Source of the DNA: Eledone cirrhosa | Taxonomy: Eukaryota | DNA length: 64,000 nt | Assembly: GCA_964016885.1 (NCBI GenBank) | Contig: OZ024743.1 | Location: 294,128,001-294,192,000 of the forward strand | Reading direction: 5' to 3' | In this document: positions 11,878 to 15,428 of the stretch, in pieces | How positions within the stretch are numbered: position 1 is the first letter of the stretch | How the letters are laid out: each line of letters begins with the position of its first letter | Notes under the pieces: generated by a model | The model's database searches: none | The model's input: the letters and a program-made list of their open reading frames with translations, nothing else | What the model was told of the DNA's origin: nothing | Made by a program: the position numbers and the translations under genes

Positions 11878-11919
<42 letters not shown>

Positions 11920-12463
11920 AAATTAAGATAAATCAAAATGAATTTAATCTAAATCAAAATTATGGGTGTCATGCCAGAAAGACATGCGCCATACCACCCG
12001 CAAAATAAGCTCTAAGATTCGAACGAATAGGTCCAAGCTGGTATGATGTGTGTATTTCTAGTAGATACAGCACGTGTTGCTGGCCAGTCGCTGATTTGGA
12101 CTTGAAGTGTAAACATAGATCGCTGAAACTTATTCCTTGTTGAAAATCAAAGTATCGGCATCCGTGGTTTACCATGCGATTAATTGGTGAAATATATTTC
12201 TTTAACGGAATATATACAGAGAAGATTAATCATATTATAAGGTATCTATTTTTGAAGTTCTGGTTAACTTTATTCAGTTACCTACCTAGCTATGTGTGCT
12301 TACACACTTGTAAAAATTATCTCCTGCGATTATTCATTTTTATTTATATGTTAATCAATTTCTAGTTATTATATATATAGTAATAATAATAAATTTGAAG
12401 ATCCCGTTAATGGTGAACGCATCGATTCTTTGCTTAAACTTTAATCTTTATTTTAATAAATAA

Positions 12464-12503
<40 letters not shown>

Positions 12504-12507
<4 letters not shown>

Positions 12508-12905
12508 TAGAATTGGAGCTCTGAAATAGCAATATATATATGGATGTATATATAATGTATTTTGCAATACACTTTATGCTTAATTAAAAGCATTTTGAAG
12601 ACCGTAGAGTAGTGACAAATTCATTTACTTTAATCTCAGCAAACAGGGGAGATAAGCCGACAAGGCCTTGTTTCGCTTTTGTTGAAGCTTATCAAGGCTA
12701 ACTACCCCTCCTGTCTACTGAGATTACTGATGTTATATTCTTATAGAATTCTAGTAAATAATCAGGAACTGATTATACAGAGCGATTGTTGGTCAGGCAG
12801 AAATTAAAAATTAGAATTGGAGCTCTGAAATAGCAATATATATATGGATGTATATATAATGTATTTTGCAATACACTTTATGCTTAATTAAAAGCATTTT
12901 GAAGA
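12504..12905 (-). mobile_element. Retrozyme-like insert: 1.3 copies of a 304-nt unit with an internal HHR
   Basis: 98-bp identical direct repeats at 12504-12601 and 12808-12905. No ORF. (TA)n on both sides. Confidence 0.75.
12655..12699 (-). ncRNA. Type I hammerhead ribozyme, U3-A8 variant, intact
   Basis: Minus: agcc TTGATAA gctt caacaa aagc GAA ACAAGGCCTTGT C ggct. 12-nt palindromic stem III, GUC triplet. Confidence 0.88.
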
Positions 12906-13143
12906 TATATATATATATATATAAATATATATTTAAACGTTTGAGAAAGACTCTGCCCCCACGACCCTCTCAGAAATAAGTGGGTGAAGAAGAAGAGAAG
13001 AAGATATTGTCAATTTACTTTTCAATTTACATATATCTATATGCATATATATTTGCGTATATATTTGCGTATATTACCATTATGCACACTACATATACTA
13101 GCAGAAAACCGCCTTTCGGCGGTTTTTCTGCTAATGTGTTTAT

Positions 13144-13284: not shown

Positions 13285-15423
13285 GTTACCCTTGATCTCA
13301 ATAATGACCTGTACTACCCATACAGGAAACCCAATGACAACCTGCACTACATCCACCGCCGATCTAACCATCCTAGGAACATCACCAACAACCTGGTCAA
13401 AAACATCTCCCTCCGCATATCCCATTTGTCAGCTAATGAGAAGATATTCGATGAACATGCGCCTTACTACAACCAGGCCCTCAAGCGGAGTGGTTTCCGG
13501 GAGGAAATATCCTACTGTCCAGCTCCCATTAGCGGAACCAGCAGGCGACACCGCCGCTCACGCAATGTAACATGGTTCAATCCTCCCCACAACGCCGAGG
13601 TGACAACTCCCATCGGGAAAATTTTCTTTAGGCTCATTGAAAAACACTTCCCACCACAACACCGCTAGCAAAACATAATTAACAAAAATACCATCAAACT
13701 CTCTTACAGCACTACACCTAACTTCGCACAAAACATTGTCTCCTCCAACAACAAAAAACTCAACCCCGATGGAAGAAACAACCCAAATAGCAGTGGAGAG
13801 CCGATCAGGAGGTGCAATTGTCCTGATAGATCCAGTTGCCCCCTCGACAACAGATGCAGGGACCGTAATGTGATCTACCAGTGCAACGTGAGCACGGACA
13901 CCTCCAACAAAGCTTATATAGGATTAACCGCATGTGACTTCAAGACCGTGCTATACCAACACAGACATACTTTCCGAAACCCGGCCCGGCGTCACGCGAC
14001 TACACTTTCGGGCCACATATGGGACCTCAAGGACAACAACATCAACTATGATCTCACTTGGAAATTACTGTCCAGAGCCAACTCTTACACGGGAGGACGC
14101 CGTCCGTGCAATTTATGCTCGGAGGAAACTTTACAAATGATGTTTTCGACGGACCAACTCCTAAACAAGAAAGATGAACTGGTTACTGCATATAAACACC
14201 GATTACGTAGGACTTACCTCGCCCTCAAACCCCATAATGACCCGGGGGGGGGGGGGAGACTAGGGCTATAACACCCCACTTGCCTATTTTGTAATGGGTA
14301 ACCCCTGCTTGCCAATGGAGACGTAAGATCTTCTTTTACATTCTTTTATCGCTTCCTCTATATTTCCTTCTTCCCCCCATCCCTCACTAGTCTTTCTACC
14401 CCAGTTCCTTTTCTTTGTCGTCGTCTTTTTCTCGCCCACCCGAGGTAGCCCCTCGGTCCCTTGTAGCTTCAACACCCCCACTCCCTTCCCCTATTCCATG
14501 ATAGATTTGGCTGACTCCGCTTTTTATAGCTGAGGTGTTAGACTTCGGATACTTTCCCCCTTCTCCGACCGCTGTCCCTTTTTTCCCGTGCCTTCTATAT
14601 TTCTTAGTGGCATCTTCGCTTTAATTTCTCGTTTATCCAGTATTTCTTTCTTCTTTTTCCCTTTTGTTTGGGAGGGGGGGGGGTTACTGTATTAATTTTC
14701 CGTTCTTTACTTTTACTTCGTACGATCTTTCATGTAGCGGGTATAAGACTTTTCGTTTCGTGGCGGTACCCTTAGAGTTAGCACTAGTATTTTTTTGCGG
14801 GACCCTGAATTATATTCTCGTACTAGTTTACTTTCTTGCATGGGTGGTTGCTGGCCCTGTGATTGGGGTAGAAACCTTTATTATTTCGTGGCAGTCTCTT
14901 TAGTATTTTATTCTTCATTATATATATTTTTAAATTTATTTATCTATTCTTTTATTCACGTATTTGTTTATTTATTTATTTATGTATTTCTTTAGCCTAG
15001 CAATAGCGAGAGACTTAAGTCTTAGTAACCAGACTTTGCTTATTTTTTTATTCTCTCTCAGTACTGTTTATAGTTTTACCCTACATTGTTCTACTTACCG
15101 TTTCGAATTCCTCCCCCTCCCCCTCCCCAGTATCCATTTGACCTCACGCCCAGCTGTAGCCGGCACTACCAACACATAAATGGGTCTACTCCACCCCCTC
15201 TCCCCTTTTCTCCTACCGGCAGGTTTAGCAACCCCTTCCCCACCAATTTGCCATCACCGATTTACTACTAACTTGTGATGTGACCAATCCTCGTGATTGT
15301 CTCTTTGACCATATATGGAATATATTGATAAGCTCGGCTATTTAAATACCATAATAAATTTTCATTCAGTCCAGAATTAGCCGTCGAAACGGCTTGAGCT
15401 CAGCCGTCGGGGTCTTACTTGTT

Positions 15424-15428
<5 letters not shown>
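13283..15428 (+). mobile_element. Penelope-like retroelement, 5'-truncated; thumb plus GIY-YIG nearly intact (one stop at 13666) and long 3' region
   Basis: [18 protein letters not shown]...SNHP, WFNPP, CNC..CPLDNRC, IYQC...AYIG, CNLCSEE, LLNKKDEL. Inserted within (TA)n. Confidence 0.92.
15307..15414 (+). ncRNA. Candidate variant hammerhead at PLE 3' end
   Basis: gacc [a tatat gga atata] TTGATAA gct cggcta...tagccg tc GAA ACGGCT tgagctc AGCCGT C ggggtc. Confidence 0.5.

Follow-up and report, generated by a model that had tools for sequence, protein, structure and literature searches.

Introduction

Metazoan non-LTR retrozymes are non-coding tandem repeats of low GC content with a unit of 150-450 bp, one type I hammerhead per unit and a self-paired predicted circle, and they co-exist with Penelope-like elements that have been proposed as their motor (PMC7229834; bioRxiv 10.64898/2026.07.22.740005). 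Their circles are known from northern blots and have been demonstrated in coral, mussel and axolotl (PMC7229834). Primed reverse transcription of the circle has been proposed; fixed starts, opposed arms or (TA)n targeting are not part of the main published descriptions, and the main text of PMC7229834 makes no mention of the terms inverted, microsatellite, octopus or cephalopod. Li et al. call a retrozyme "active" if it has two consecutive complete hammerheads, and of 9 retrozyme dimers from Xenopus 8 were uncleaved (bioRxiv 10.64898/2026.07.22.740005).

Insertions of Penelope-like elements consist of partial tandems with an inverted arm and often carry a tail at one end only; the Hydra and Naiad clades target (TA)n, and how the insertions come to be tandem, inverted and one-tailed is posed there as an open question (PMC8557442). 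In AT-rich DNA a Penelope-like protein makes a nick in each strand and starts reverse transcription at two internal sites downstream of the hammerhead, the intervening sequence being the genomic tail; for one purified Penelope protein (Anolis) uncut RNA was the main template in vitro and the hammerhead was dispensable (PMC11167929). Hammerhead cores of the U3-A8 type are a natural variant reported from Penelope-like elements (PMC4209133). Finally, the non-autonomous Chlamys elements, e.g. MRC1, are non-coding Penelope-type derivatives that occur in multicopy head-to-tail form, have a 3' end similar to that of their autonomous partner and are mostly without canonical hammerheads (PMC8557442).

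The family described here, from Eledone cirrhosa, has features of each of these systems. Like the metazoan retrozymes it has a low-GC, non-coding tandem unit (about 317 nt) with one type I hammerhead, a self-paired predicted circle and co-existing Penelope-like elements, and judged by its sequence it likely belongs to them. Unlike the retrozymes compared, its core is of the U3-A8 type, and its circle is predicted from sequence whereas theirs were seen on blots. Partial tandems, an inverted truncated arm, a one-end tail set by two start sites of reverse transcription downstream of the hammerhead and AT-rich or (TA)n targets are shared with the Hydra-clade elements (PMC8557442) and with the Anolis Poseidon element PAc (PMC11167929). 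In contrast to these, the family has no reverse transcriptase (RT) or endonuclease ORF, its tail is 26-33 instead of about 70-80 nt long, and its unit cannot be aligned with the terminal regions of five Hydra families, similar hammerhead cores excepted. It is non-coding, multicopy and head-to-tail as the Chlamys elements are, and no match of their kind to a partner was found for the 317-nt unit. In the literature we found no description of the 317-nt family or of fixed, paired starts in retrozymes; repeat databases (Repbase, Dfam) and supplements may list it.

Results

The insertion in the window

The window, i.e. the whole stretch of 64,000 nt that was analysed, contains a terminal direct repeat of 98 nt (12504-12601 and 12808-12905, period 304), which the earlier note had pointed out and which is exact over its full length (Table 1). 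The flanks had been described as pure (TA)n. This holds on the left, where (AT)18 adjoins the copy; on the right the (TA)9 tract is pure for 18 nt only and imperfect beyond.

Table 1. Coordinates of the retrozyme insertion, its parts and its target tracts in the window.
Feature	Position	Strand	Remark
Single-arm retrozyme insertion, 1.31 turns	12504..12905	-	starts at unit position 1, ends at position 98
First turn, 304 nt	12504..12807	-	317-nt family unit minus 13 nt
Partial second turn ("98-bp direct repeat")	12808..12905	-	right end is a random truncation
Fixed start site A	12504..12508	+	unit positions 313-5; start of the window copy
Fixed start site B	12528..12541	+	unit positions 25-31; internal (AT)5 tract
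Penelope-type tail between sites A and B	12504-12531		
Type I hammerhead	12638..12709	-	U3-A8 core; palindromic loop on a 3-bp stem III
Long helix extending stem I	12630..12730	-	would hold the 5' end of a cut-to-cut monomer paired with its 3' end
Pair switching between U-A and C-G among subfamilies	12632/12725		in the long helix
Junction of private 13-nt deletion	12604..12605		unit positions 102-114
Left (AT)18 target tract	12468..12503		at 3' end of Hydra-clade Penelope fragment
Right (TA)9 tract	12906..12923		

The RNA sense of the copy is the minus strand, so that the plus strand would correspond to the cDNA. The earlier reading of a 304-nt circle had to be given up, as the unit of the family is 317 nt: the shorter period is due to a deletion of 13 nt, private to the window copy in that its junction is found at no other place in the genome. 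A 304-nt subfamily was rejected on the same count. By prediction, the deletion would take out one strand of a helix beside site B, a helix that is common to a related 310-nt family. At least two consecutive complete hammerheads are present in the family, whereas the window copy has one only. Since it has a single hammerhead and lacks 13 nt, this copy is a product that could not alone release a cut-to-cut monomer; it is an ordinary, damaged product of its family.

Several other repeats lie near the insertion. Positions 12397-12503 are 95% identical to a Hydra-family locus (L178), and the retrozyme lies within the TA flank of this Hydra piece, which makes the site a nested insertion hotspot. The piece itself (12372-12467, about 100 bp) derives from another Hydra family and is two-armed by eye; Pfam gave no family for the fragment neighbouring the retrozyme. 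A further high-copy repeat beginning at a (TA)n tract occupies 11918-12370. On the other side, 13285-15427 (plus strand) holds a 5'-truncated Hydra-clade Penelope-like element. It comprises RT thumb and GIY-YIG, contains an in-frame stop (13666-13668), ends in (TA)n and has its own hammerhead near 15330-15410 (U3-A8-type core, GUC). Its family is very abundant and has 66,648 candidates in the genome, with open frames of 788-819 aa in some copies.

A dispersed non-coding family

A search of the genome with the repeat gave 1358 candidates, of which 38 were scored, with 89 matches. A 27-mer of the core has 1084 exact matches in the genome and its reversed control none, which is not chance; two further exact probes of the family gave 1516 and 2545 matches, again with no match of the reversed controls. 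The genome holds over two thousand copies of the unit. All three probes have about 310-350 more matches on the minus than on the plus strand, an excess that may reflect one very long array. With 1084 core matches, and with 52 loci on contig C1 alone, the family is, as had been proposed, a dispersed non-coding hammerhead retroelement found in (TA)n, and its spread across the genome sets it apart from a unique local duplication.

Also in line with the earlier note, the element has no ORF to speak of: the longest ATG frame is 28 aa, and stop-to-stop frames within the repeat are at most 57 aa (in a 5-turn array). An ORF with RT plus GIY-YIG is absent from the 317-nt element, which is therefore not an autonomous Penelope-like element. 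Non-LTR retrozymes have no LTR, PBS or PPT and occur as dispersed copies. The copies of the 317-nt family are dispersed too, and what repeats at their ends is an incomplete turn, differing in length from copy to copy, and not an LTR. Arms reach 6.55 turns (L095, single-arm), and 31 of 96 arms cross the predicted cut at least twice.

More diverged relatives are present at L089 4058-4742 and L185 8-1037 (86-89% identity with the 317-nt unit; 94% with the 310-nt unit), which gives the clan further subfamilies; the one at L089 has an altered hammerhead core. By eye, a possible intron (GUAAGU ... UUUCAG) can be seen in the unit, its donor being absent from the 310-nt family.

The hammerhead and its fold

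The minus-strand hammerhead is located where the earlier note had placed it. It consists of the core UUGAUAA (12695-12689, U3-A8), a 4-bp stem II (GCUU/AAGC) with the loop CAACAA, GAAA at 12674-12671, stem III CAAGGCCUUG at 12670-12661 and a GUC ending at 12659, all on the minus strand, with the predicted cut between 12659 and 12658. All core positions of the hammerhead are present, with U3-A8, and there is one type I hammerhead per unit. The Rfam model HH9 matches 12638-12709 weakly, with 23.9 bits and E 0.002, which falls short of the gathering score (52), and at gathering scores the whole window has no Rfam match. The 91-nt hammerhead region is more stable than expected (z -4.06, none of 200 shuffles as stable); its minimum-energy fold pairs the core and is not the active fold. 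The predicted circular folds have z values of -5.0 and -4.3.

The long helix contains a pair that is U-A in 41 loci, C-G in 32 and something else in 3 (76 loci), and in stem III of one subfamily an A-U pair has changed to U-A. These compensatory changes, each of them a single event, suggest that the ribozyme fold has been maintained. Conservation of the core within the C1 sample is a circular argument, the sample having been picked by exact core match.

Two fixed starts and opposed arms

Insertion ends were mapped on contig C1, where all 99 exact core matches fall in 52 loci. L071 (a duplicate of L070) and one arm running off its locus were left out, which gives 95 arms in 51 loci, a sample biased towards arms that contain the core. 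Of these arms, 83 start at one of two sites, A or B, which together make up 17 of the 317 unit positions (5.1 arms expected by chance). Site A accounts for 41 arms, 37 of them adjoining TA-like DNA, and site B for 42, 32 of them adjoining such DNA; the remaining 12 start elsewhere. The two sites are about 26-33 nt apart. The far ends, on the other hand, are uniformly distributed (chi-square p 0.66), with 4 of 95 near the cut against 3.3 expected. It follows that the left end of the window copy is a fixed start and its right end a random stop. The genome-wide mapping of copy ends had been proposed with the idea that shared fixed ends speak against the earlier reading; one end proved fixed and the other random, which refutes entry at an arbitrary point but not a circle.

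Two opposed arms are found in 37 of the 51 loci, a single arm in 12, and 2 loci are complex. Where two arms are adjacent (36 loci), the combination is A+B in 29, never A+A or B+B, and includes one non-standard end in 7. Among 26 further loci, picked by score with a query that starts at A, there are 9 of type A+B, 2 of type A+A and 6 with a non-standard end; the two A+A loci count against our main reading. The arms overlap by 0-6 nt at most of their joins, and in 37 of 51 loci start sites close both outer sides, with nothing but unit sequence between them. The footprint as a whole is thus made of 3' ends fixed at two sites (the tail), a random 5' truncation and an inverted arm. In one locus (L030 1395-1476) a retrozyme arm borders with its far end on a same-sense terminal-repeat fragment of Hydra family H5, which is either a template switch or a nested insertion.

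The homologous 310-nt family

A homologue with a 310-nt unit (L067 207-2463; L146-L155) has the canonical core CUGAUGA. Its loci are about 99.9% identical to each other, its core has 4257 exact matches, and it is younger than the 317-nt family. All 11 two-armed loci are A+B, and arms reach 14.4 turns. Among 13 loci, 4 variants occur in all turns, 12 in one turn and none in a subset of turns; small as these numbers are, the pattern is what one would expect as the trace of a single monomer read round repeatedly, though a homogeneous source array could also account for it. An older locus of the 310 type (L185) has 5 variants in only some of its units. As a lead to the partner element, core and stem II of the 310-nt homologue nearly match those of Hydra family H5, and the 317-nt family has its U3-A8 core with GUC in common with Hydra family H1.

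Penelope-like elements and the search for a partner

Coding elements in this genome bear, by translation, the marks of the Hydra clade (RWR for RWK, DKT, CxCX5C); they too have opposed arms, and two fixed sites mark their ends in (TA)n. The footprint of the 317-nt family matches both the Penelope tail and this local Hydra-clade behaviour, and on these grounds mobilisation by a Penelope-like protein is very likely.

Which element might supply the protein is a separate matter. Comparison of the unit with copies of five Hydra families gave no convincing alignment, only weak AT-rich matches, and none of these families is an autonomous partner with the sequence of the unit. The start sites of the five Hydra families are about 70-80 nt apart, as against 26-33 in the retrozyme, and this spacing, together with the lack of a partner sharing the unit sequence, counts against our main reading. 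By eye, the start sites of the five families (L141, L156, L158, L180, L186) are followed by a hairpin closed by RCUC/GAGY, upstream of the ORFs, and a looser GCU...AGC can be seen after site B of the retrozymes. Hydra matches are found in 3 of 22 flanks of free far ends, at a distance of at least 108 bases.

Which template was copied

Across the genome 1516 units read through the cut base. Another 31 do not continue across it, and among the 30 of these that were inspected only 4 stop at the cut. Stops at the cut thus amount to about 4 in 1547, which is near the background rate per base. The earlier note had held that copying runs past its own start and past the predicted cut, and the crossing units bear this out in a manner that fits a circle. 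A cut linear monomer copied once was rejected, as there is no accumulation of stops at the cut. In five loci (L202, L204, L205, L206, L208) small deletions have their start precisely at the predicted cut, with a loss of 3-9 nt from stem III; they could be scars of ligation or jumping, or ordinary hairpin deletions.

Sequence differences in 77 loci amount to 2.1% within a locus, 2.5% between its two arms and 4.4% between loci. Common variants were concordant in 315 cases; another 61 cases were discordant, 25 of which lie at the edge of site B and are probably alignment artefacts. Private variants fixed in all units of a locus number 8, of which 6 span both arms, whereas 205 occur in only some units; the latter would be expected from mutation after insertion, yet they blur the test of the template. 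Taken together, the variants shared across turns and arms favour a monomeric circle, and we consider circular RNA to be the likely template. The 317-nt go-back joint also occurs in 4 of 5 sequencing runs of unrecorded kind (contigs), which says nothing on expression or circles since genomic tandems give the same joint; a joint of the empty site was not seen in those five runs.

Discussion

We think that the insertion in the window is probably a single-arm, deleted member of the 317-nt family, made by a Penelope-like RT/endonuclease that circled a predicted circular RNA from two fixed starts beside (TA)n. Firstly, tandem arrays would be transcribed, cut at each hammerhead and ligated into a 317-nt circle. 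Secondly, as the junctions suggest, a Penelope-like protein would nick both strands of a (TA)n tract. One target strand would then prime at A, about 166 nt 3' of the cut, and the other at B, about 140 nt 3' of it; the junctions display this pattern directly, and the enzymology is presumed. The internal (AU)5 of site B could pair with a TA primer. Copying would pass the cut site, go on for a number of turns that varies, stop at random and end with the joining of the arms, all of which can be read from the insertions. The window copy would have retained the A arm only, the 1.31 turns that are seen.

The strongest alternative assumes the same Penelope-type element and the same fixed starts, with an uncut linear multimer from a homogeneous array as template and a hammerhead that is slow or vestigial. 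It accommodates the read-through of the cut site equally well, and has parallels in the Anolis element, whose main template in vitro is uncut RNA (PMC11167929), and in the majority of the Xenopus dimers assayed, which were uncleaved (bioRxiv 10.64898/2026.07.22.740005); the excess of 310-350 minus-strand matches may be one large source array. However, some private variants are fixed in each turn of both arms, and in the young 310-nt family no variant is confined to a subset of turns, which requires a bottleneck of one monomer. The arms of up to 14.4 turns across a canonical core, as well as the compensatory changes that suggest a maintained ribozyme fold, also speak against it. On balance we regard this alternative as unlikely, if deserving of attention.

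A cut linear monomer could also give tandem turns without a covalent circle if the enzyme jumped from end to end, either onto another monomer or back onto the one just copied. Template jumping by retrotransposon enzymes is known, and 5 of the 30 exceptions inspected are small deletions starting at the cut, a number that has no control position for comparison. The scarcity of stops at the cut and the 1516 intact joints are difficult to reconcile with such jumping, which moreover would mix subfamily variants within a locus, and such mixing is rare; we find this explanation improbable.

More improbable still is an in-place expansion, through DNA recombination, of a satellite, of a locally duplicated stretch or of the terminus of a coding Penelope element. 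Some single-arm arrays, e.g. the one of 6.55 turns, may have been lengthened locally. Against it stand the dispersal over 52 loci on a single contig, the closure of 37 of 51 loci by start sites on both sides, and the fact that none of the 22 free far ends continues into a common coding sequence, by which the family is also distinguished from the 3' UTR of a coding element, as the earlier note had maintained. Arbitrary entry into a 304-nt circle, the earlier reading, explains the random far ends and the passage beyond the start, but the two fixed start sites and a 304-nt form found once in the genome refute it in both point of entry and size.

Returning to the circle copied from two fixed starts, a broader proposal can be made more tentatively: the retrozyme clan may record a full Penelope insertion on a circular template, in which one complex would use both TA strands and sites A and B of the same circle. 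If so, two opposed multi-turn cDNAs would explain both the one-end tail of Penelope insertions and their tandem-plus-inverted structure, and ribozyme-made RNA circles would be genuine templates of retrotransposition in animals, where the re-entry of retrozymes into the genome has so far been proposed, not demonstrated. The 317-nt family makes definite predictions, namely two start sites, one for each target strand, a ligated cut that is read through, and one monomer per insertion. With predictions of this exactness, the re-entry of retrozymes and the structure of Penelope insertions would both be reduced to a small in vitro assay.
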